DNA of 64,000 bases from an uncultured archaeon (GTDB taxonomy: Archaea > Nanohalarchaeota > Nanosalinia > Nanosalinales > Nanosalinaceae): NCBI GenBank assembly GCA_964421955.1, contig CAYQYU010000001.1, positions 76,521 through 140,520 on the forward strand, read 5' to 3'. The stretch's first letter is position 1. Each line of letters starts with the position of its first letter. The notes beneath the pieces are model-generated. The model made no database searches. It saw nothing but the letters and a program-made list of their open reading frames with translations, and was not told the origin of the DNA. This document shows, one piece after another, positions 11,434-60,030 of this stretch. Position numbers and translations under genes: made by a program.

Positions 11434-13083
11434 CTAATCCCTGACTAGATTCAGGAGTTTCTGCACATCGATCTCGAAGCCCGCAACCTTTCTGTCGAGC
11501 CCCCAGTTTTCCACCACACTGTTAGAGAACTCGCCTATGACTCCTACATGTTCCCCTTCGAACATGATATCTCCGGAGCGATCCTGGCGGAAACATTCTT
11601 TCCCGGAAGATTCAATCTCAAATTCGACTCCGAGTTCACGCCCCAGAACCTGTAAAACCTGCCGTACATCAGTGTAGCCCACTCCATTGTCCGAGTGAAC
11701 ATATGCTAGCTTCCTCTTGTTCGAAACACCTACCGCAGAGTTGTCGAGTTCGGAAACATCCGCGACCTCGAAGAACTTCTGCGGGTAGCTCCTGTGCCTA
11801 TTCCGGCCGAGCACCTCCATAAGCGACGGCAGTAGCCAGTTCCTCACAGCGGTATAATCCTCAGTTAGGGGGTTCGACATAGAGGCGATGTCTTCCTCCT
11901 CTAAGCCCATCTTTTCGAACAGCTTCTCCCTGTTTGAAAGGATGTAGGTATGAGCCTCCAGAGCCCCGGTTCCCTGGAAAATATCTCTCAACAGCCGTGT
12001 ATAATTCTCGACCGGTTTCTCGTTACCGATCTGGTCGGCCTCCGGCAGCTCTGGCTCTATATTATCGTATCCATGGGCTATCACCACGTCCTCTATAACA
12101 TCATACTGGTGCATCACATCGTTCCTGTAGGCGGGCACCTCAACAATGATCTTCCTCTTTTTCTTCTTCGCGCCGAACTTCATCCTCTCCAGCCGCTCGA
12201 CAATCTCCTTCCCGTCGAGTTCAAGTCCGGAGACCTTCTGGAAGTACTCGATATCAAGCTCCCGCTCCTCCGGTTCGAGATCCGGCATTACAGTGCCGTC
12301 GACACCCACTGCCTCTATCTTTCCTCCTCTCTCCGCCAGCGCAGTCGCAAGGATATTCAGGGCCTTCATAACTGTTTCACGATCCTTTCCTGTAACATCG
12401 ATGAAGATGTCCTGGGTTCCTGCAGAAACTTCTGTGAGCTGGTTGTTAATGATAGGCGGGAATGAGAGTACACGGTCTTCCGCATCCACAATTATAGGGT
12501 AGCGGTCCTCGTCCTCCAGTATCCAGGCGTACTCCTGTCCTTTCTCGTGCTCTTCGAGAATCTCCCCGAGCTGCATCTCTCTGTCATACTCAAGCGGTTT
12601 GAAAGATACTTTCTCGGGTTCGACCGCCCTGTATGTGAAAGGAGGCTCAACAGCGTCAAGGTCATGGAGGCCGATAGCGAGCTTGTCACGCCTTCTACCC
12701 ATCGATTCATGGAGCTTCTCCTGTAGCTGTATCAGTCCGTTGATCATCCTCTCTGAAAGCTCCAGATCACGGACAACCGCACCGCCGATGTAAGGTCTTA
12801 CGTCTTCAACCGAATCTTCAATCCTGATCTCCGTGCTGCCGTCCCGGATCCTGTATTCGTCCAGACCCTGCTCCAGCCCGAAGAATCCTCGATACGCGCG
12901 GGCAAGACCCTCCACTGACAGAAGGTCGGGACGGTTAGGATAGACCTCCACGTCCCACTTTTCGCCTTCTACGTGGTTCCAGTGCGCGCCCAGGAAAGAC
13001 GCCTTTTCGTGGAGAAGCCGCTCATCAACCTCATTCTCCATTAGACTGTCGAACTCCTTCTTGTTTATTTTGATATGTGAAAT
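11434..13083 (-). CDS. pheT: phenylalanine--tRNA ligase beta subunit; probable ATT start at 13083
   Basis: Archaeal PheT homology along the whole ORF (NRPDLLSVEGLARAYRGFFG and others). The first ATG is 13041, but the conserved N-terminus (I)SHIKINKKEFDSL is encoded upstream in frame. ATT 13083..13081 lies 6 nt behind GGAGGTGA. Confidence 0.9.
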   Translation of the reverse strand: MSHIKINKKEFDSLMENEVDERLLHEKASFLGAHWNHVEGEKWDVEVYPNRPDLLSVEGLARAYRGFFGLEQGLDEYRIRDGSTEIRIEDSVEDVRPYIGGAVVRDLELSERMINGLIQLQEKLHESMGRRRDKLAIGLHDLDAVEPPFTYRAVEPEKVSFKPLEYDREMQLGEILEEHEKGQEYAWILEDEDRYPIIVDAEDRVLSFPPIINNQLTEVSAGTQDIFIDVTGKDRETVMKALNILATALAERGGKIEAVGVDGTVMPDLEPEERELDIEYFQKVSGLELDGKEIVERLERMKFGAKKKKRKIIVEVPAYRNDVMHQYDVIEDVVIAHGYDNIEPELPEADQIGNEKPVENYTRLLRDIFQGTGALEAHTYILSNREKLFEKMGLEEEDIASMSNPLTEDYTAVRNWLLPSLMEVLGRNRHRSYPQKFFEVADVSELDNSAVGVSNKRKLAYVHSDNGVGYTDVRQVLQVLGRELGVEFEIESSGKECFRQDRSGDIMFEGEHVGVIGEFSNSVVENWGLDRKVAGFEIDVQKLLNLVRD

Positions 13084-14489
13084 TACGCATCACCTCCCGT
13101 CTTGTCCGGCCTCCATGCTGGCGTCTGTTCAAGTATTTCGATGTCGTTCCTGTAGAGTTCACGGATATCTTCAAGTCCTGCAGACTTCATCGCTATTCTC
13201 GGTATCCCTAGGCCCCAGGCGAGAACCGTAGCCTCGAATCCCAGCATCGGTTTCACCACTTCCGGCCGGAACATTCCCGCGCCGCCGAGCCCCACCCATT
13301 CCTGGTCTTTCTCATCCCACACATGCACCTCGACACTCATCTCGGTGTAGGGGAAGTAGCTCGGGACTAAACGGAACTCCTCGAACCCCATTTTGCTGAA
13401 GAACTCGCTGATGTAACCCTTCAGGTTCGTGAACGACAGGTCTTTCCCGACGACTATGCCGTCGGTCTGGTAGAACTCTGCGAGATGGAAGCGGTCGACT
13501 GTCTCGTTCCGGAAGTTCCTGGATACTGTAAAGAACTTCTTCGGCAGCTCCTCTTCATTTACATCGATCTCATGTATCCTCTGTATAGAGACCGCAGTAG
13601 TATGTGTCCTAAGAACATTCTTCTTTGCCTCCTCCAGCGACCAGTCGTATCCCCAGCCTCTTGAGCCTGTTTCCCAGCCGTTTTCATGCGTCTGCTTCAC
13701 GTGATCGACCTTGTCTCCATAGCTTGAAAGGTCCGCTTCCGCAGGATCTTCCATGAAGAATGTGTCATGCATCTCCCTTGCAGGGTGGTCCTGGGGGGTA
13801 TAGAGCGCGTCGAAGTTCAGGAAGCTCGATACTATGAAGTCGCCAGACATCTCCTGGAAGCCCATTTCCAGCCACTTCATCCTTGCCTGATCTATTATGT
13901 CCTTGTAGAAATGTTTCTTGCCGATACGCGGGGTCTTCACCGATGCCTCGACATTAAAGTCCTCGTCGATTTCGCCCAGTTCTACCGACTCACCCTCCGC
14001 AGTGATCTCGATGACTCTCTCCGTTTTTTCCCGGGTTCTTACCAGCCCGCGTTCTTCAAGGTCGGTATCGTAGTTCCGGGACTCCAGCTTCTGCCGGACA
14101 GGATCGCTGTCAAGATTCTCCCTGCCTTTCCTGGTGAGCGATGCCTCGCCGTCCTCGAGCCTCACCCACGATTTTTCTCTCGCTTTCCCTAAAGCTACGT
14201 CGAGATCAAGGTCTTGGAGATCAGAAAGTTCTCTGGATTCATCTTCGAGCCTCTGCACCAGCTGGTATTCCGGGGAACCGTGCTCCAGAACATCTCTGCC
14301 CGCGTCGGTAAGTTCGTGCGTTAGTTCATCCTCTTCCTGTATCTTCGCGAGCCCTTTCTCTTCAAGTTCCAGCCCGGCCCTGTGAACCATCGACTGGTCG
14401 TATCCCTCTTTCTCGAGATCCTCAATCTTCAGGGAACTCTTCTGCTTGAGCTCCTCCAGAATCTGGATTGCCTGGCTTGAAAGCTTCAC
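13083..14489 (-). CDS. pheS: phenylalanine--tRNA ligase alpha subunit
   Basis: 468 aa with class II aaRS motifs (HPAREMHDTFF, FRNE, GLGIPRIAM). GTG start with a TATA-like TTATTAAAG about 25 nt upstream. Confidence 0.9.
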   Translation of the reverse strand: MKLSSQAIQILEELKQKSSLKIEDLEKEGYDQSMVHRAGLELEEKGLAKIQEEDELTHELTDAGRDVLEHGSPEYQLVQRLEDESRELSDLQDLDLDVALGKAREKSWVRLEDGEASLTRKGRENLDSDPVRQKLESRNYDTDLEERGLVRTREKTERVIEITAEGESVELGEIDEDFNVEASVKTPRIGKKHFYKDIIDQARMKWLEMGFQEMSGDFIVSSFLNFDALYTPQDHPAREMHDTFFMEDPAEADLSSYGDKVDHVKQTHENGWETGSRGWGYDWSLEEAKKNVLRTHTTAVSIQRIHEIDVNEEELPKKFFTVSRNFRNETVDRFHLAEFYQTDGIVVGKDLSFTNLKGYISEFFSKMGFEEFRLVPSYFPYTEMSVEVHVWDEKDQEWVGLGGAGMFRPEVVKPMLGFEATVLAWGLGIPRIAMKSAGLEDIRELYRNDIEILEQTPAWRPDKTGGDA

Positions 14490-22868: not shown

Positions 22869-23408
22869 CTACGGAGTAACCCGTTCGACTTCATAGTAGG
22901 TGACGCCTCCTTCTGAATCCACGACACCCCATAGCATCTTTGCGCGGATGTTGTGCGCGAGTCTTACAGCGCGGGACATTTCCTGGAAGCTGAGTGTGTG
23001 GTTCTCGGGAACAGCGTGGACCACCCACTTTGTGTGCTCCTTCTGCTTCTTGGGCCCCTCCTTGTACGGGTTGACGCCTCTCGGGTAAACGCGAAAGTGG
23101 GTGCCGAACTTGAAGCCGCTCTTCACTATGTAGCCCCTGTCTCTTAGATCGTCGTAGACCTTGTACGTGTGGTCGAACTCGTCGTCGATCAACGAGAAAC
23201 GGGAGTAAAGCTCGTCCCGGGAAAGTTCCTCCCCGTTCTCCTTGACCTCGAGTTCTTCACGGTCGACAAGGTGCATCGCCTCCACGGGCGAAAGTTCGAG
23301 GACATCGTCGTTCTGGTATTTGCCGTAGTAGAACTCCTCATATACTTCCTCCGCATCTTTTTCATCCTCTACGCGGACGCGGGATTCCACAAGTTTTCCG
23401 GCTGTCAT
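22869..23408 (-). CDS. endA: tRNA-splicing endonuclease
   Basis: 179 aa from ATG 23408, with the TATA-like TTTAAAAG about 30 nt upstream. Motifs RGYIVKSGFKFGTHFRVY, HTKWVVH and a late catalytic Lys region (NIRAKMLWGVV). Confidence 0.85.
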   Translation of the reverse strand: MTAGKLVESRVRVEDEKDAEEVYEEFYYGKYQNDDVLELSPVEAMHLVDREELEVKENGEELSRDELYSRFSLIDDEFDHTYKVYDDLRDRGYIVKSGFKFGTHFRVYPRGVNPYKEGPKKQKEHTKWVVHAVPENHTLSFQEMSRAVRLAHNIRAKMLWGVVDSEGGVTYYEVERVTP

Positions 23409-23443
23409 ACTACTAGCGGAGCATATGAAACTTTTAAAGCTGG

Positions 23444-24025
23444 CTAGAACCAACTAGAGCCTTCTCTTTGAAGTTCAAAATTATCATCCTTGGTCTCTTC
23501 AAAGTAGTCTGACACCGTGTCGCCTCTAAGCACAGCCGCGGCCATCTCATCGAAGGCAGTTGAATAGACTAGTACATTGTCTTCCGACCCTGCAAAGCCA
23601 AAGGTGTAGGTATTAATCCCCTCCTTGTTGCCCGATACCTCTGCTAGATGCTCCGCCATCGATCCCAGAAAGTCTTCTCCAGCCTCTGAAACATATCCTC
23701 TAGTATCAAGTACGGCCTCAACATCTTCTCCAGAGAAATCATCTCGCACAGGTACTCTATAATCTATCTCAGTGACCTCATAAGAGCCCCCTAAATTACT
23801 ACCGCTAACGTTAACGGACCAAGTCAACTCTTCAGCCACTAGTTCTTCAAATTCAAGATCTTCAATATCTCTTCTTACTCTCTCAGCTGGCTCAGCAATA
23901 TCTTTTTCCAACTGATTCTCGTTCTTTTCCCTGCCTAGATGTGACGGGACTAGAACAATACCTCCAATACCCAGACCCAAGCCTCCAGCCACTCCCAAAG
24001 TACCAATAAGCTTTCTGCGCCTCAT
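23444..24025 (-). CDS. exported or membrane-anchored hypothetical protein with twin-arginine-like N-terminus
   Basis: 193 aa. MRRRKLIGTLGVAGGLGLGIGGIVLV is followed by an acidic domain. Confidence 0.45.
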   Translation of the reverse strand: MRRRKLIGTLGVAGGLGLGIGGIVLVPSHLGREKNENQLEKDIAEPAERVRRDIEDLEFEELVAEELTWSVNVSGSNLGGSYEVTEIDYRVPVRDDFSGEDVEAVLDTRGYVSEAGEDFLGSMAEHLAEVSGNKEGINTYTFGFAGSEDNVLVYSTAFDEMAAAVLRGDTVSDYFEETKDDNFELQREGSSWF

Positions 24026-27081: not shown

Positions 27082-27215
27082 GGGCCGGTAGCTCAGTCTG
27101 GCAGAGCGCGAGGCTCTTAAACACCTCAAGTCTCCGCAGGAGACGAGGACCCAGAAAATCTCCGATTTTCGATAGAGATACCTCGTCGTCGTGGGTTCAA
27201 ATCCCATCCGGCCCG
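27082..27215 (+). tRNA. tRNA-Lys(CTT) with a 60-nt intron
   Basis: Acceptor GGGCCGG/CCGGCCC, D-arm GCTC/GAGC. Anticodon stem CGAGG/CCTCG with loop C-T-CTT-A. Intron 27120..27179 after position 37. T-arm GTGGG-TTCAAAT-CCCAT, discriminator G. Confidence 0.85.
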
Positions 27216-27831: not shown

Positions 27832-28323
27832 ATGGAGACCCCGGAATCAGAATTCGAGGCAGTTGCCACTCTCTGTTACATCATAGAAGACGGCCGAGTG
27901 CTCTTAATCTACAAGAAACGCGGAATTGGAGAAGGACTGTATAACGGGCCTGGCGGCAAAGTAGAGCAACATGATGATTCCCCGAGAGAGGCAGCGAAAA
28001 GAGAGGTGAAAGAAGAGGTCAGGGTTGAGGTCGAAGATCTGGAGAAGGTCGGGGAACTCGAGTTCTACTTTGGAGACAGACCATTCATGTATGGACATAT
28101 TTTCAAGACCTCTGAATACGAAGGTGAACCAGAAGAAACTGAAGAGGCGCGGCCGGAATGGTTCGAGATTGGATCACTACCCTACGACCAGATGTGGGAA
28201 GACGACCGCTACTGGATGCCCAAGATGTTCAACGGCAAGAAAATCAAAGCGAAGTTCCAGTTTGACGAAGACGGTGACGAATTTTACTGGGAGAAATCCG
28301 CCATCGGAAAGGCCAGCTTCTAG
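27832..28323 (+). CDS. NUDIX hydrolase (MutT-like)
   Basis: Nudix box GPGGKVEQHDDSPREAAKREVKEEVRV. Confidence 0.85.
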   Translation: METPESEFEAVATLCYIIEDGRVLLIYKKRGIGEGLYNGPGGKVEQHDDSPREAAKREVKEEVRVEVEDLEKVGELEFYFGDRPFMYGHIFKTSEYEGEPEETEEARPEWFEIGSLPYDQMWEDDRYWMPKMFNGKKIKAKFQFDEDGDEFYWEKSAIGKASF

Positions 28324-30251
28324 ACCATTTTCTCCGGGAAACCATTTACCTTTGTCTCGTATTCGCCGCCTTCGCCCGCGGCATTGAAACCGTATTCACG
28401 GGAGAGATCGATCAATTCCTCCACAGACTCCTCATCAAGGACTCTTCTCTCCCAGCTTTCTTCCAGTCCGCGTGCCGCGACCGAGGTAATCTCGACTTCA
28501 AAGCCTTCTCTCACAAGCCACCTCATGTAGTGTTCCTGATCTTCCTGCCAGAGCGGTGCGAAGACCTTCAGGCCAATTTTTTCCGCAACTTTCTCGACCC
28601 GGTCCCTCTGGTAGGTCGATGCGAGAGCTCCTGCAACAACTCCTTCGACATCGTATTCCTCTCTGGCCTTTCTCAGGACTTTTTCCAGGTCTTCCAGCTC
28701 TTCTTCTTTCTCTCCCTCCGTTTCCTGGACTACTAGAGGGATACCCAGTTCCCCCGCCTGTCTCTCGAGTTCTGAAAGTTGTTTCTTCGAGTCGAACATG
28801 TAGCTGTCCCTGTTCTCCGACCGGAGTGTCACCAGGCAGGCGATCTCATTGTTGCGGCGGCGCATCCTGTAAAGTGCGGCATTCGAATCTTTGCCCCCAG
28901 AGGTCAACACAGCTAAACGGTGATTTGGCTCCTCTCTCAGCGAGTTGAGATACCCCTGCTTGGAATCGAAGCCATTATCTTTTGCGAGCCTCTCGACCGC
29001 CTTGTCGAAGTTGCTTCCATACTGGGCTGCGGTCTTCTCCCTCCAGGCCACGTCTTCAGGCACCCCCAGCTCCTCAGCCGCCTTCCTCAAAACGTATTTC
29101 CGGTAGCCCTCCTTCATCTTGTAATCCTCCGGAACCATAAGTGCGTGCTCCACCAGGTCGTGGTCAAGGAATAGAACCCTGAGTTCGTAGCTGTTCCTCA
29201 TAGACACGACATCGTCCCTGTAAAGGTCGCGATGGAAAAGCGACCTCAGTCCCGAGAGACATTCGCGGTTCAGGTAGTTCTCCATTCTCGAGTACCCGGC
29301 GTAGAGCTGCTCCGACCCCAGGCCAGACATCACAACTTTCTCGTCGCCGTTCAAGGCCAGGTGGAACGGTAGCGCCACTCCCAGCTTCACTACCGATGTT
29401 GAAGAGATCCAGTCCGCAAGTCTAGGTAGCACAGTCTCGACCTCTTCAAGCGAGGCATCGTAACTCCTGAGTTCCAATTCCATCTCTTCAGCAACTTTCT
29501 CCGCCCATTCTGTATCTCTGGGCGCATCAACATTACCGTGTTGTATTCCGGCAGTGTAGCAGGTGAAATCTCTCTCGAGTTCCTTTAGTGCGGCCGCAAC
29601 CATAGTGGAGTCCACTCCGCCTGAGAACAATAATGCAAGTTCTCCATCTGGAACTCGTTTCTCAACTGCCTCCAGGAATTTTTCCTTTATCTCCTCGGCA
29701 GCCTCTTCTATACTTTTACCTTCTTTGACATCTGTCTCGAAGAACTCTCGCTTCCGGAAGCTTAATTCTCCTGACTCTATATCGTACCTGAGTACCAGTC
29801 GTGGATGTAGCTCCTGGGCCTCCAGGCCTTCCTTTTCCAGCGCCTGTTTCTCGGAGGCGAAGGCAAAAGGCTTCCTGGAATACCAGACAGGTTTCACCCC
29901 CAGGAGGTCACGGGCCAGTATAACCTCTCCATTATTAAAATAGGCGAAAGCATAGACACCATCAAGCAACTCAAGCGCATCTTTACCCCTGGCTTCGAGC
30001 AGCTCCAGGAGGAGTTCAGCGTCATTTCTTACATCCAGGCTGTATTCTTCCGCTAGCTCCTGCCAGTTGTATATCTCGCAGTTCGCCACCAGCGTTCCTT
30101 CTCTCTGGAGAGGCTGTTCGACATCTCCCACAACAGGATGAAGCACATGACCCAGCGGAAATTCGCCGCCATCAATTTTGCTGGAGCCACCCCTGTGTTT
30201 GAGGTGCTTCGCCAGTTTCTCTGCCTTTTCGCCACCCGTTATGCCGCACAT
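28320..30251 (-). CDS. fusion protein: AsnB-like glutamine amidotransferase/asparagine-synthase domain plus Dph6-like (DUF71/MJ0570) PP-loop ATPase
   Basis: 643 aa. N-terminus MCGI (Ntn nucleophile Cys2), first PP-loop LLFSGGVDST, second PP-loop AVLTSGGKDSNAALY, and a C-terminal GEGGEYET motif typical of DUF71. Confidence 0.75.
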   Translation of the reverse strand: MCGITGGEKAEKLAKHLKHRGGSSKIDGGEFPLGHVLHPVVGDVEQPLQREGTLVANCEIYNWQELAEEYSLDVRNDAELLLELLEARGKDALELLDGVYAFAYFNNGEVILARDLLGVKPVWYSRKPFAFASEKQALEKEGLEAQELHPRLVLRYDIESGELSFRKREFFETDVKEGKSIEEAAEEIKEKFLEAVEKRVPDGELALLFSGGVDSTMVAAALKELERDFTCYTAGIQHGNVDAPRDTEWAEKVAEEMELELRSYDASLEEVETVLPRLADWISSTSVVKLGVALPFHLALNGDEKVVMSGLGSEQLYAGYSRMENYLNRECLSGLRSLFHRDLYRDDVVSMRNSYELRVLFLDHDLVEHALMVPEDYKMKEGYRKYVLRKAAEELGVPEDVAWREKTAAQYGSNFDKAVERLAKDNGFDSKQGYLNSLREEPNHRLAVLTSGGKDSNAALYRMRRRNNEIACLVTLRSENRDSYMFDSKKQLSELERQAGELGIPLVVQETEGEKEEELEDLEKVLRKAREEYDVEGVVAGALASTYQRDRVEKVAEKIGLKVFAPLWQEDQEHYMRWLVREGFEVEITSVAARGLEESWERRVLDEESVEELIDLSREYGFNAAGEGGEYETKVNGFPEKMV

Positions 30252-49571: not shown

Positions 49572-49731
49572 ACTTGGTTGTGACTGTTGAATTACTCTCA
49601 GGCACACTGGAACCACTGGTTCCGGGTTCGCAGAAGCTCCGTCAAGGAGTTTCGAGCGGTTCTTGGGAGACAAGCCTTCGCTTGTGGTGAAGGCCTCTGG
49701 AGCGAGTCAACCGAACAAGAGGTGACTATCT

Positions 49732-50703
49732 ATTTCCGACGTAAACAGACCACGCAGTGGATCGCTAGGGTTCAAGCCCAAGGTACGCGCACAGAGGATC
49801 TATCCAGAGATAGATAACTGGAAGGACGAGGAAGAGATGAAGCCGCTGGGATACGCCGGCTACAAGGTCGGCATGACACGAATCCTGATGATCGACGATA
49901 CCGAAGGAGCGACAAGCGGTCAGGAAGTTGCGACACCAGTAACAGTACTTGAAGCACCACCTCTCCGGATATACGGCGCCCGTTTTTACACCGAAGACCC
50001 TAATTCCGGTAAGCAAGTCTTCACTGAAGCGTGGACTGAATCGCCTTCTCCAGAGCTACAAAGAGCGACCGACATCCCGAAGGAAGGCAACATGGACAAC
50101 TTTGACGCGGCAAAGGAGATTTCCGACGATCTGATTGACGTGAGGCTCCTGGTCCATACCCAGCCATCACAGGCCGGCATTAGCAGGAAGAAGCCGGAGA
50201 ACTTCGAGATCGGTCTCGGAGGAACAGTTGACGAAAAAATTGAATACGCGGAAGAGATGATTGGAAAGGAGATAGAGTTCTCCGACGTTTTCGAGCCAGG
50301 AGAGTACTCCGATGTTGTCGCAGTGACCAAAGGACGTGGTACTGAGGGTCCGATCAAGAGATACGGCATCAAGAGGTTGACCCACAAGACCCAGAAGAAA
50401 CGACGCAAGGCAGGAAACGTTGGCCCATGGCATCCTGACAAGCTATCGTGGAAAGTTCCACTTCCAGGGCAGCAGGGCTACAATAACCGGACGGAGCTGA
50501 ACAAGAGAATCATCGGATACGGAGAGGAGCCTGAAGAAGTACAGCGCGACGGAGGATTCAAGGGCTACGGCGAGGTCAGGTCGAACTACATACTCATTAA
50601 GGGATCAGTTCCCGGCTCTGAGGAGAGACTTGTAAGGCTGAGAACCGCGCTGAGAAAAGACGAAAAACCAGGAGAACCAGAGATAACACACGTTGACAGG
50701 TGA
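49732..50703 (+). CDS. rpl3: 50S ribosomal protein L3 (uL3); probable ATT start
   Basis: uL3 homology (GYAGYKVGMT, TKGRGTEGPIKR, HPDKLSWKVP..GQQGYNNRTE). The conserved N-terminus SDVNRPRSGSLGFKPK is encoded in frame upstream of the first ATG (49837). ATT 49732 lies 6 nt behind GAGGTGA. Confidence 0.9.
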   Translation: MSDVNRPRSGSLGFKPKVRAQRIYPEIDNWKDEEEMKPLGYAGYKVGMTRILMIDDTEGATSGQEVATPVTVLEAPPLRIYGARFYTEDPNSGKQVFTEAWTESPSPELQRATDIPKEGNMDNFDAAKEISDDLIDVRLLVHTQPSQAGISRKKPENFEIGLGGTVDEKIEYAEEMIGKEIEFSDVFEPGEYSDVVAVTKGRGTEGPIKRYGIKRLTHKTQKKRRKAGNVGPWHPDKLSWKVPLPGQQGYNNRTELNKRIIGYGEEPEEVQRDGGFKGYGEVRSNYILIKGSVPGSEERLVRLRTALRKDEKPGEPEITHVDR

Positions 50704-53274: not shown

Positions 53275-54381
53275 ATGCAGGAGAAACAGTTTATCGACAA
53301 GGGCGCCAGGAAGGTAAGGCTTCACGAATATCTCGAAGAAGAGCTAGAGGGCGCAGGTTATTCGAAGAGCGATATTGTAAGAACCCCGACATCCACAAAG
53401 ATCGTTATCTTCGCCCAGAGACCGGGGCTAGTAATCGGTCGGGGCGGATCACGCATCAGAGAACTCACCTCCGAGATGGAAGAGAAATTCGATTTCGAGA
53501 ACCCGCAGGTCGAGGTAAACGAGATCGAGAACCCGGACGCAGACGCGGAAATAGTCGCGAAATCAATGGCTTCCTGGCTTGAGAAAGGCGGTCGAACAAA
53601 GAGAGTCGGCTACACTTACCTGAGAAGGATGAAGGAGGCAGGAGTGATCGGCGCAGAGATCGAGATCGCCGGGAAACTATCAGGTAACAGGGGTCGCACG
53701 GAAAAGTTCTCATTCGGATACGTGAAACGATGTGGAAACACCTCGAAGGAAAACGTCGCACAGGCCTACGAACTCGCGAGAACCAAGCCTGGAGCGATCG
53801 GCGTGAAGGTAAGAATAATGGAGTCGATGCCCGAGTTCAAGCACCGGGATGTCGACGTTGAGGAGGAAATCCTCCACGAGACGATCGAGCACGAGGAAGG
53901 TTTACCGCGTGACGAGAGAATCGAAATGGTCGTGGCAGAGGCCGAGAACATGACCTCCACAGGTATTGAAGACGCGATGGGAGAACTCGAGGTCGGAACA
54001 GACGACATCGAGAAGCAGGAGGTCAGGGACGTCTTTGAGGACCGTGGAGAAGAGATCCAGGAAGAAGCCGAAGAAAGAGAGCAAGAAGTAGAGACAGAAG
54101 ACGCCAAGGAGGAAAGTGACACTGAAGAAGACGAAGCAGAAGAGACTGAAGAGGAACCTGAGGCCGAGGAAGAAGAACTAGAGACCGAAGAGGAAGAGAG
54201 TGAAGAAGATACCGAAACAGCTTCCGCGGACTACGAAGAAATCCTATCCGGAACGATCAGCGACGCCAAAGACGTGCTTGAAGACCTGGAAAATCCGGAC
54301 TGGGATGCCGCGCTTGAAGCCGAGAAGGACAACAAAAATCGCACAACATTCATCGACTGGCTCGAAACCAGGATAGACTGA
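53275..54381 (+). CDS. rps3: 30S ribosomal protein S3 (uS3) with a C-terminal extension of about 160 aa, mostly acidic
   Basis: KH/S3 core (GLVIGRGGSRIRELT, GAEIEIAGKLSG) followed by a long E/D-rich tail ending DWDAALEAEKDNKNRTTFIDWLETRID. Confidence 0.93.
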   Translation: MQEKQFIDKGARKVRLHEYLEEELEGAGYSKSDIVRTPTSTKIVIFAQRPGLVIGRGGSRIRELTSEMEEKFDFENPQVEVNEIENPDADAEIVAKSMASWLEKGGRTKRVGYTYLRRMKEAGVIGAEIEIAGKLSGNRGRTEKFSFGYVKRCGNTSKENVAQAYELARTKPGAIGVKVRIMESMPEFKHRDVDVEEEILHETIEHEEGLPRDERIEMVVAEAENMTSTGIEDAMGELEVGTDDIEKQEVRDVFEDRGEEIQEEAEEREQEVETEDAKEESDTEEDEAEETEEEPEAEEEELETEEEESEEDTETASADYEEILSGTISDAKDVLEDLENPDWDAALEAEKDNKNRTTFIDWLETRID

Positions 54382-54574: not shown

Positions 54575-55555
54575 ATGAAAATCCTTGGAATTGAAAGTAC
54601 GGCCCACACGTTTGGCGTAGGAATAGTCAACGAGGAGGAAATACTCGCGAACGAAAAGTCGATGTTCGAGCCGGAAGAGGGCGGCATACACCCACGTAAG
54701 GCAGCGGAACACCACTACCAGAACGCCCTGGAGGTGCTGAAAAACGCGCTCCAGAATGCGGACCTGGAAGAGGATGATCTGGATGCTATAGCATTTTCCC
54801 AGGGACCAGGTATCCCGCAATGCCTGGATACCGGAGCTGTTGTCGCTCGATCACTCAGTATGAAGCACGAAATACCCCTTATAGGCGTAAACCACTGTCT
54901 CGCCCACATCTCTATCGGGACTAGAACCACGGGAGCAGAAGCCCCGACCACGCTCTACCTATCCGGCGGAAACTCCCAGATACTTGAGCTCAAGAACGGG
55001 CGGTACCGGATTATCGGGGAGACTCTCGACGTCGCTCTTGGAAATGCGCTTGACAAGCTAGCACGGAAAATGGGTCACCCACATCCGGGAGGACCGGAGA
55101 TAGAGAGGTTGGCGGAAGGGACTTCAGATATAGTCGAAGTCTCCTATCCCATCAAGGGGATGGACTTCTCCTTTTCCGGACTGGTCACTGAGTGTGAAAG
55201 AAAAATTAACAGTGTGGAAGAAGAGGTAATCGCGAACAGCTTCCAGGAGCACGCCTATGCCGCAGTGGTCGAGGCGCTGGAACGTGCAATGGCGCAGGAA
55301 GAATCGGATGAGGCGCTTTTGACCGGCGGCGTTGCGATGAACTCTCGGCTGAGGGAGATGGTGGAGCAGATGTGCGAGCAGCGGAATGCGGAAGCCTACT
55401 TTCCACCGAGAGAGTTCTGCATGGATAACGGCGCGATGATTGCGGAACAGGGGCGGCTGGAGCTGGAAGCTGGCAGAGAGACTCCTGTAGAAGAATCCGC
55501 AAAGAAACCGAACTGGAGACCTGACGAGGTCGAGGTAACATGGACCTGGAGCTAG
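54575..55555 (+). CDS. kae1: tRNA N6-adenosine threonylcarbamoyltransferase Kae1
   Basis: 326 aa. ILGIESTAHTFGVGIV, GVNHCLAH, LYLSGGN and FCMDNGAMI. Confidence 0.93.
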   Translation: MKILGIESTAHTFGVGIVNEEEILANEKSMFEPEEGGIHPRKAAEHHYQNALEVLKNALQNADLEEDDLDAIAFSQGPGIPQCLDTGAVVARSLSMKHEIPLIGVNHCLAHISIGTRTTGAEAPTTLYLSGGNSQILELKNGRYRIIGETLDVALGNALDKLARKMGHPHPGGPEIERLAEGTSDIVEVSYPIKGMDFSFSGLVTECERKINSVEEEVIANSFQEHAYAAVVEALERAMAQEESDEALLTGGVAMNSRLREMVEQMCEQRNAEAYFPPREFCMDNGAMIAEQGRLELEAGRETPVEESAKKPNWRPDEVEVTWTWS

Positions 55556-56130
55556 AGCAACAGATAAAGCGGGCCAGAGAAGCCCTGAAAGATGGCGGAA
55601 TGGCGATCTTCCCGACTGAGACTGCCTACGGCATAGCCGTGGACGCGATGAATCCTGGTGCGGTGGAGAAAGTCTATGAGGCCAAAGGGAGACCGCGAGA
55701 GAAAGGTCTTACAGTGATAGTTGCCAGCCTGGAGCAGGCGGAAGAGCACGCAGAGCTTTCAGACGAGGATAGGAAGGTGGTGGAAGAGTTCATGCCTGGC
55801 CCGCTGACACTTGTAGTGGAGAAGAAACCAGAGGTCCCCGATATTCTCAACGAAAAATTTGTGTTCCGGATCTCTTCCAGCAGGATCGCCAGAGAGTTGG
55901 CAAGGAACAACCCCATTACCGCAACAAGCGCCAACATTTCAGGTACGAAGACTTCTTACCGGGTCGAGGATATCGACCCAGAACTACGGGAAATGGCGGA
56001 CTACATTATCGACATCGGCGAACTCGAGCGTTCTCCCACCTCTACGATCGCAGAAGTTAATAACTCGCGTCTCGTCATTCACCGTAGAGGCCCGGTTACA
56101 CGGGAACAGCTCGAAGACGTGCTAAAATAA
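55540..56130 (+). CDS. tsaC: threonylcarbamoyl-AMP synthase, YrdC-domain-only (TsaC/Sua5 family)
   Basis: 196 aa. FPTETAYGIAVDA, KGRP..K.L and TATSANISG. Overlaps kae1 by 16 nt. Confidence 0.9.
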   Translation: MDLELEQQIKRAREALKDGGMAIFPTETAYGIAVDAMNPGAVEKVYEAKGRPREKGLTVIVASLEQAEEHAELSDEDRKVVEEFMPGPLTLVVEKKPEVPDILNEKFVFRISSSRIARELARNNPITATSANISGTKTSYRVEDIDPELREMADYIIDIGELERSPTSTIAEVNNSRLVIHRRGPVTREQLEDVLK

Positions 56131-59457: not shown

Positions 59458-60030
59458 ATGACAGAGATACAGGGCGCAGAGGCCACAGTTGAAATTGACG
59501 GAAACGTGATCAAGAAACGGCTGAGAAAGAACTACAGGCACCGCGAACTCGATGGAAGAATCAGGAAGGACAGGACCGGGAAAGAGGCCAGAATAATGAA
59601 AGAGGCACGGAAAAACGGCGCCCGCGTTCCAGAAGTGGAACAGGTCGATGACTACACCCTGGATATAGAGAAGATAGAAGGAGAACAGCTCAAAGACGTG
59701 CTGGAAGACAATATTGATGCGATGAGCGATCTCGGAAGGAACACGGCAAAGTTGCACGGCGCGGACATAATCCACGGAGACCTCACGACCAGGAACACCA
59801 TTCTATCCGACGAAATCTACCTTATCGACTTCGGTCTTGCCTCCCGGTCACAGAGGATAGAGGACCGGGCAGTCGACATACATCTCCTCAAACAGGTGCT
59901 CGAAAGTTCCCATCCGGGAGTCGCAGAGGAGGCATGGAAAAACTTCCGGGAAGGTTACCGGGAATACGAGAAGAGTGAAGAGGTCCTGGAAAGACTTGAA
60001 GAGGTTGAAAAAAGGGGTCGCTACAAGTGA
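59458..60030 (+). CDS. bud32: KEOPS kinase/ATPase Bud32
   Basis: 190 aa. GAEATV, YRHRELD..IR..RT..EAR, IIHGDLTTRN and LIDFGLA. Confidence 0.9.
   Translation: MTEIQGAEATVEIDGNVIKKRLRKNYRHRELDGRIRKDRTGKEARIMKEARKNGARVPEVEQVDDYTLDIEKIEGEQLKDVLEDNIDAMSDLGRNTAKLHGADIIHGDLTTRNTILSDEIYLIDFGLASRSQRIEDRAVDIHLLKQVLESSHPGVAEEAWKNFREGYREYEKSEEVLERLEEVEKRGRYK

Follow-up and report, generated by a model that had tools for sequence, protein, structure and literature searches.

From which codon is the beta subunit of phenylalanyl-tRNA synthetase (PheRS) translated in an archaeon whose deposited PheT protein appears to lack its N-terminus? The question arises at the junction of pheS and pheT, the genes for the alpha and beta subunits, in a 64,000-nucleotide stretch of DNA that we call the window (contig CAYQYU010000001.1, positions 76,521 to 140,520). 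Its host is a member of the Nanohaloarchaea, a DPANN group; close homologues of its PheT and of its ribosomal protein uL3 are all nanohaloarchaeal, the nearest being 77% and 82% identical, respectively. An earlier note, made from the letters of the window, had proposed that pheT starts at an ATT behind a strong Shine-Dalgarno (SD) sequence, that rpl3, the uL3 gene, starts in the same way, and that gene callers limited to ATG, GTG and TTG would truncate such genes. Both proteins, P0001 (PheT) and P0121 (uL3), have indeed been shortened, and the comparisons described here make SD-driven initiation at a near-cognate AUU in the two genes the best-supported reading and, in our estimation, a probable one.

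The pheS-pheT junction

On the minus strand pheS ends with ...ACG GGA GGT GAT GCG TAA (TAA 13085..13083), and the pheT frame reads TGA(13092..13090) TGC GTA ATT(13083..13081) TCA CAT ATC AAA ATA AAC AAG AAG GAG TTC and continues, through GAC AGT CTA, to the annotated ATG (13041..13039). The sequence GGAGGTGA at 13097..13090 is followed by 6 nt, TGCGTA, and then by the ATT, whose first base (13083) also belongs to the pheS stop; with 6 nt between GGTGA and the ATT, an in-frame TGA within the SD follows trivially. The earlier note had placed all of these elements exactly, the TAATT overlap included, and it was right that the frame holds no ATG, GTG or TTG between TGA 13092..13090 and ATG 13041. 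A scan for SD sequences found none before ATG 13041 (matching assumes the archaeal consensus, the 3′ end of the 16S rRNA lying outside the window). Two further codons of this frame, ATC 13074 and ATA 13068, were considered as starts and rejected; at 15 and 21 nt, both are too far from the SD. The RNA of the junction shows no structure beyond that of shuffled sequences (z = -0.30).

The protein itself is an archaeal/eukaryotic-type PheRS beta subunit, with the Pfam domains B1, B3_4, B5 and tRNA_synthFbeta (on P0001 and its orthologues) and structural matches in the PDB to 2cxi, 7dpi and 3l4g. Its orthologues, 119 in our set, begin M[APS][HNT][ILV][KE][IV][ND]K.EF and run to 543-557 amino acids, against 535 in the deposited protein. 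The ATT of the window aligns with their Met1, and conservation extends over the residues ahead of Met 13041; the N-terminal pattern given in the earlier note was thus correct. The nearest N-termini read MSHIKINKKEFDEL (P0007, P0008), where the window has (I)SHIKINKKEFDSL. By contrast, the Met at position 15, encoded by the first ATG, is shared by this genome with only a few; the usual residue there in relatives is V, L or I.

The DNA of the relatives points the same way. Of 28 distinct related junctions, 24 have ATG and 4 have GTG at the codon homologous to the ATT; an SD stands 5-10 nt ahead of it in every one, and the pheS stop often abuts or overlaps it. Such a comparison of junctions, like that of PheT N-termini, was among the checks that the earlier note had proposed, and it favours the ATT as the ancestral start position; each of those comparative checks came out on the side of the ATT. 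The complement to the anti-SD at the window junction is 9 nt, the longest among 29 distinct nanohaloarchaeal junctions, the others having 4-7 nt, and at the related junctions the mean is 6.5 nt for GTG starts and 5.7 nt for ATG starts. A strong SD beside a weak start fits compensation of the kind reported for GUG and UUG by Belinky, Rogozin and Koonin in 2017 (PMC5622118), who likewise found the weaker start with the stronger SD; a base-call error predicts no such pairing.

The upstream gene has a weak start of its own. In the window pheS begins with GTG, at 14487-14489 on the minus strand; among related loci (pheS starts in L001-L044), 25 of 26 have GTG as well, and the N-terminus of PheS in this set is V[KR]LSxQA. 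For an essential synthetase subunit, a GUG kept throughout the clade is out of the ordinary; it hints that pheS, the first of the pheST pair, may be under selection for a weak start.

A second proposed ATT start, in rpl3

The same geometry recurs in rpl3, as the earlier note had said: GAGGTGA, 6 nt and ATT 49732, with the first canonical start, ATG 49837, 35 codons further on, where the annotated uL3 of 288 amino acids begins. This ATT aligns with Met1 of approximately 115 uL3 orthologues; residues 1-87 align to residues 1-87 of Pyrococcus uL3 (4v4n chain AC), residue 1 to residue 1, and the N-terminal segment is conserved as far as eukaryotic uL3. The upstream codons encode (I)SDVNRPRSGSLGFKPKVRAQRIYPEID, the first 28 residues being identical to those of P0123 except for residue 1. 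The ATT TCC GAC of the window corresponds to ATG TCA GAC in the three closest rpl3 genes. Provided that translation begins at the ATT, the protein carries both marks of an archaeal uL3, PF00297 and the N-terminal extension RPRxGSLGF. The SD of rpl3 ties for the longest among six aligned start regions (the window and five relatives), while the SD scan finds only a 4-nt GAGG before ATG 49837. As in pheT, the first downstream ATG encodes a genome-specific Met: at position 36 the relatives have L, Q or K.

The skipped codons of both genes show coding-type conservation. Between the window and L056, codons 2-28 of rpl3 differ at nine synonymous sites and no nonsynonymous ones, and the ratio of nonsynonymous to synonymous proportions (Nei-Gojobori pN/pS) is 0.24-0.31 in both extensions, close to the 0.15-0.25 of the remainder of the genes. 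An AlphaFold2 model of PheT (41 sequences; mean predicted local distance difference test score [pLDDT] 83) places residues 2-7 in a strand and residues 8-15 in a helix, at pLDDT ~89; these are the first strand and the first helix of domain B1, and a PheT begun at Met15 would, on this prediction, lack both. The comparisons show that both skipped stretches evolved as coding sequence, but data of this kind do not date the G-to-T change.

Unlike pheT, rpl3 is preceded by a leader of its own. We compared its upstream region across the window, L054, L055, L056, L025, L026, L057 and L060. The leader carries a motif, CAAGCCT(T)C-loop-G(A)AGGCCTCTGGA, that is conserved in relatives, and the pairing of its hairpin is kept by compensatory changes (ACCTTC/GAAGGT in L025, with a fifth pair that is C-G or U-A). 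It folds better than shuffled sequences (z = -2.95). An Rfam scan of the window matched three tRNAs and no family for this leader, which may be the autoregulatory leader of a ribosomal-protein operon.

How common is the arrangement? Among the 64 predicted genes of the window, pheT and rpl3 are the only ones in which a strong SD (at least 7 nt) is followed by a near-cognate codon before the first canonical start. Both have a spacing of 6 nt, and the canonical genes of the window have 4-9 nt. Scans with NCBIfam profiles of 30 other stop-to-stop open reading frames (ORFs) gave no family profile beginning inside an upstream extension. In 56 related loci (L001-L056), approximately 150 starts of the neighbouring genes (HerA, NDK, PspC, PheS, PheT, L3, L4, L23 and L2) are all canonical at, or within 3 codons of, the aligned position. 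The earlier note had suggested that AUU may be an alternative initiator in this lineage; that is too broad, for ATT is found at none of the 28 related pheT junctions and in none of the 119 PheT orthologues, the three closest rpl3 genes have ATG, and the single parallel is a distant ATC. It occurs in a distant nanohaloarchaeal rpl3 (L057; 493-498, Logan SRR11308166), where GGGGTG and TGAAAA are followed by ATC at the Met1 codon; the contig was recovered from two samples, and the gene has no canonical start for 36 codons and is represented by a database protein (P0237) shortened to 284 amino acids. An ATC start conserved in the group of L057 was ruled out, since its nearest relative, L060, has GAGGTG, ATACTG and then ATG, and its other close relatives (75-69% identity) are full length. 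As far as these sequences go, near-cognate AUH starts at rpl3 appear sporadically in the clade and are not conserved, and the proposed ATT starts of pheT and rpl3 belong to this genome alone.

Four further uL3 entries, P0195, P0196, P0229 and P0232 (from L025, L026, L058 and L059), lose 10-21 residues in the public record. They were considered as cases of non-canonical starts and rejected: each has an in-frame upstream ATG with the conserved N-terminus, which marks them as miscalls. Gene callers often misplace the uL3 start in Nanohaloarchaea.

Table 1. Positions, in the window, of the features discussed in the text
Feature	Position	Strand	Remarks
pheT, Phe-tRNA ligase beta subunit, corrected extent (proposed)	11434..13083	-	549 codons + stop
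First in-frame pheT ATG	13039..13041	-	Start in public annotation (535 aa)
13 codons SHIKINKKEFDSL between ATT and first ATG	13042..13080	-	N-terminal part absent from annotated PheT
ATT, proposed pheT AUU start	13081..13083	-	1-base overlap with pheS TAA (TAATT)
pheS, Phe-tRNA ligase alpha subunit, 468 aa	13083..14489	-	GTG start 14489, TAA 13085..13083; NCBIfam PRK04172 and TIGR00468 matches
Shine-Dalgarno GGAGGTGAT within pheS 3′ end	13089..13097	-	Includes TGA 13092..13090, closing the pheT frame upstream
Initiator-type tRNA-Met, normal CAT anticodon	25747..25823	+	A1:U72; GGG/CCC in anticodon stem
Archaeal TATA-like box ATTTATAAAA	49563..49572	+	Upstream of rpl3, conserved in relatives
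rpl3 5′ leader, ~140 nt	49595..49731	+	Conserved hairpin GCCTTC 49674..49679 / GAAGGC 49689..49694
Shine-Dalgarno GAGGTGA of rpl3	49719..49725	+	Includes in-frame TGA 49723..49725
ATT, proposed rpl3 AUU start	49732..49734	+	6 nt (CTATCT) past GAGGTGA
rpl3 (uL3), corrected extent (proposed)	49732..50703	+	323 codons + stop

Probable initiation at AUU and its competitors

If the two ATT codons are starts, a G-to-T change would have converted the ancestral ATG (or GTG) of pheT to ATT, and the change would have been repeated independently in rpl3. The strong, optimally spaced SD would pair with the 3′ end of 16S rRNA and put AUU in the P site, where the initiator Met-tRNA, with its CAU anticodon, would read it with a third-position mismatch; the product would begin with Met. 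ATT is permitted as an initiator in genetic code table 11. We infer the use of AUU itself, and its efficiency, from the geometry of the two sites, the homology of ATT to Met1, the coding-type conservation of the codons that follow and the uniqueness of these ATT codons among relatives. The true products would then most likely be a PheT of 549 amino acids and a uL3 of 323, the deposited forms being artefacts of callers that allow only ATG, GTG and TTG.

Translational coupling, which the earlier note had offered as a possible aid, could serve one of the two genes. Lying on the same strand, overlapping at TAATT and encoding two subunits of PheRS, pheS and pheT resemble the overlapping gene pairs for heteromeric complexes that are translationally coupled in Haloferax volcanii (PMC10666635). 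Ribosomes ending at the overlapping pheS UAA (UAAUU) may reinitiate locally, raising the yield of PheT and matching the alpha and beta subunits. Since reinitiation in H. volcanii reaches only a few nucleotides (PMC10666635), coupling would favour the ATT over ATG 13041, which is 42 nt off. The pairs studied in H. volcanii and Escherichia coli share with pheS-pheT the 1-nt overlap of stop and start, the heteromeric subunits and an SD within the end of the upstream gene, but their junctions are canonical, UAAUG or AUGA, rather than UAAUU (PMC10666635). For rpl3 the suggestion fails: it is a first gene with no upstream cistron, behind a TATA box and its leader, and coupling can therefore be no general requirement.

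Two causes that would lie in the initiation machinery were considered and rejected. The window encodes a tRNA-Met with a normal CAT anticodon, which we take to be the initiator from its sequence features, judged by what is generally known of archaeal initiator tRNAs; this argues against an altered initiator tRNA. The tRNA modification t6A37 (N6-threonylcarbamoyladenosine at position 37) affects start-codon fidelity in other systems, and a loss of its synthesis was rejected, as genes for it are encoded in the window. These genes, Kae1/TsaD (54575), TsaC/Sua5 (55540) and a RIO-domain kinase that is possibly Bud32-like (59458), are clustered at 54575-56130 and 59458-60030; the cluster points to a t6A37 machinery at least partly encoded in the window, with no sign there of altered decoding.

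Among bacterial genes with an AUU start is E. coli infC, in which the AUU is conserved across species and serves the autoregulation of initiation factor 3 (IF3). A second bacterial case is ebpA of Enterococcus faecalis, whose ATT start was missed when a downstream ATG was earlier mis-annotated in its place (PMC4447247). Both resemble pheT and rpl3 in having a near-cognate AUU at the true (here, proposed) start behind an SD, with the first ATG well downstream, and in both the weak start lowers or modulates expression. The likeness has limits. The AUU of infC is conserved and regulatory, whereas the ATT codons of the window are found in one genome and are not conserved; and the bacterial genes are translated with IF1-3, the archaeal ones with the archaeal initiation factors aIF1, aIF1A and aIF2. 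An archaeal parallel is the Asgard tubulin AtubA, for which a rare ATT start has been inferred (PMC13394414). There, too, the gene comes from an archaeal metagenome-assembled genome (MAG), the deposited protein has no first beta strand, an upstream in-frame ATT at a plausible distance from a ribosome-binding site restores the conserved N-terminus, and the start was deduced, as ours is, solely by aligning sequences and predicting structure. It is another gene in another phylum, and here two essential housekeeping genes within 64 kb are involved, with dozens of relatives that have ATG or GTG at the codon concerned. Ribosome profiling of H. volcanii also placed approximately 30% of putative alternative initiation sites at near-cognate codons (PMC7261190), which speaks for some tolerance.

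Several observations weigh against initiation at AUU. In vitro, aIF1 of Sulfolobus solfataricus reportedly rejects model mRNAs with AUU, and AUU is normally a poor initiator (reviewed in PMC4705826). In bacteria and yeast it is a very weak start, which is hard to square with the high expression of a ribosomal protein. No relative shares the ATT, which leaves no ground for claiming long-term selection for AUU, and the change could be recent. In both genes the first downstream ATG encodes a Met specific to this genome, which leaves room for a shifted start; these downstream Mets could reflect coincidence, a back-up start or a start shift. Finally, the genome is represented by a single assembly in the collections searched, so that neither base has independent confirmation.

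This last point supports the view that the ATT codons stem from a base-call, consensus or assembly error, or from a minority variant picked in the assembly of the MAG, and that both sites are in reality ATG, with nothing unusual happening. We regard this as unlikely. Exact-protein look-ups (P0001 and an edge gene) yielded no independent copy of the genome, the annotated PheT and uL3 each form single-member clusters, and scans of genomes and metagenomes brought up nothing closer than relatives with 74% identity. An error would also account for an identical G-to-T in the same context (ATGTC to ATTTC) at both sites, each change making a TTT run, and for the ATG or GTG of all relatives; moreover, curated comparisons count an AUG-to-AUU switch just once in 61,358 (PMC5622118), an extreme rarity, as against two in 64 genes here. 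Two random hits on the third bases of starts among 64 genes would, however, imply an error rate of approximately 1%, and the 30 genes that were checked against family profiles are full length, with 0 frameshifts or premature stops. A systematic miscall of ATGTC as ATTTC was examined and rejected: k-mer counts are normal, the window holding 148 copies of ATGTC against an expected 138, with no depletion. Nor would an error explain why the SDs at both sites are the strongest, or jointly the strongest, of their orthologue sets, or why another lineage, that of L057, whose contig was found in two samples, independently has ATC at this codon of rpl3.

A shifted start would accept the ATT codons as real and the old starts as dead: translation would proceed from ATG 13041 and ATG 49837, giving PheT of 535 and uL3 of 288 amino acids, and the upstream codons would simply not have decayed. 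Bacterial uL3 naturally starts close to the GYK.GMT motif, and this, the genome-specific Mets and the poor performance of AUU (PMC4705826) lend the idea some substance. We nevertheless judge this, too, unlikely. The downstream ATGs have no SD (13041) or only the GAGG (49837), as against strong SDs at the optimal 6 nt from the ATT codons; the skipped codons are conserved as coding sequence; PheT would forfeit the predicted first strand and helix of domain B1, and uL3 a 35-residue segment conserved from archaea to eukaryotes. In pheT the 42 nt from the pheS stop to ATG 13041 also exceed the ~20 nt beyond which reinitiation is lost in H. volcanii (PMC10666635).

A broader form of AUU initiation can be imagined, in which the start-codon check is relaxed or tuned in Nanohaloarchaea, or in the lineage of the window, and AUH codons with a strong SD serve highly expressed essential genes. 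By analogy with the infC circuit, the weak starts could then act as sensors that tie the output of ribosomal proteins and synthetases to aIF1. We think this doubtful; were it true, the two ATTs in 64 genes and the ATC of L057 would be the tip of a genome-wide class of genes that every standard caller truncates.

Recoding, by a frameshift near the pheS stop that yields a PheS-PheT fusion or by initiation at the out-of-frame ATG 13090..13088 with a later +1 shift, would make use of that ATG and of a pheT frame that has three open codons ahead of the ATT and overlaps the end of pheS, but it is highly improbable: GGT GAT GCG TAA holds no slippery heptamer and GGTGATGCGTAA no X XXY YYZ motif, ATG 13090 is itself within the SD, leaving no spacing, and opens a frame that closes after 19 codons, PheS and PheT are encoded separately in all relatives examined, and rpl3 shares the ATT geometry with no upstream ORF or leader ATG, so that a single explanation favours initiation at AUU.

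Implications and other features of the window

Non-AUG starts that depend on an SD are already known, and the ATT codons of pheT and rpl3 are probably new cases of a rare kind. To our knowledge, AUU and AUC starts in vivo are almost undocumented in archaea. Their immediate consequence is practical: PheT has been deposited without 14 residues and uL3 without 35, and the same is to be expected wherever callers allow only ATG, GTG and TTG. In DPANN archaea, truncations of this sort distort alignments, predicted structures and phylogenies built on universal markers. If uL3 and the beta subunit of PheRS do depend on AUU, the check exerted by aIF1 yields to a strong SD, whether or not termination-reinitiation assists, and pheT and rpl3 would form a natural test pair for start-codon fidelity in SD-led archaeal mRNAs. 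Should the two bases prove wrong, or translation begin at the downstream ATGs, what remains is a sequencing note or a recent shift of start.

Three further features of the window deserve mention. An Rfam tRNA match of 134 nt at 27082-27215 (plus strand), unreported by ARAGORN, presumably contains an intron, and a gene for a tRNA-splicing endonuclease lies near it, at 22869-23453. The uS3 gene (53275-54381, plus strand) encodes 368 amino acids, of which profiles cover approximately the first 213; the protein has a long extra C-terminal region. On the minus strand, an ORF of 643 amino acids at 28320-30251 unites a glutamine amidotransferase and asparagine-synthase-like part with a diphthamide-synthase (Diphthami_syn_2) domain at the C-terminus, an unusual fusion.

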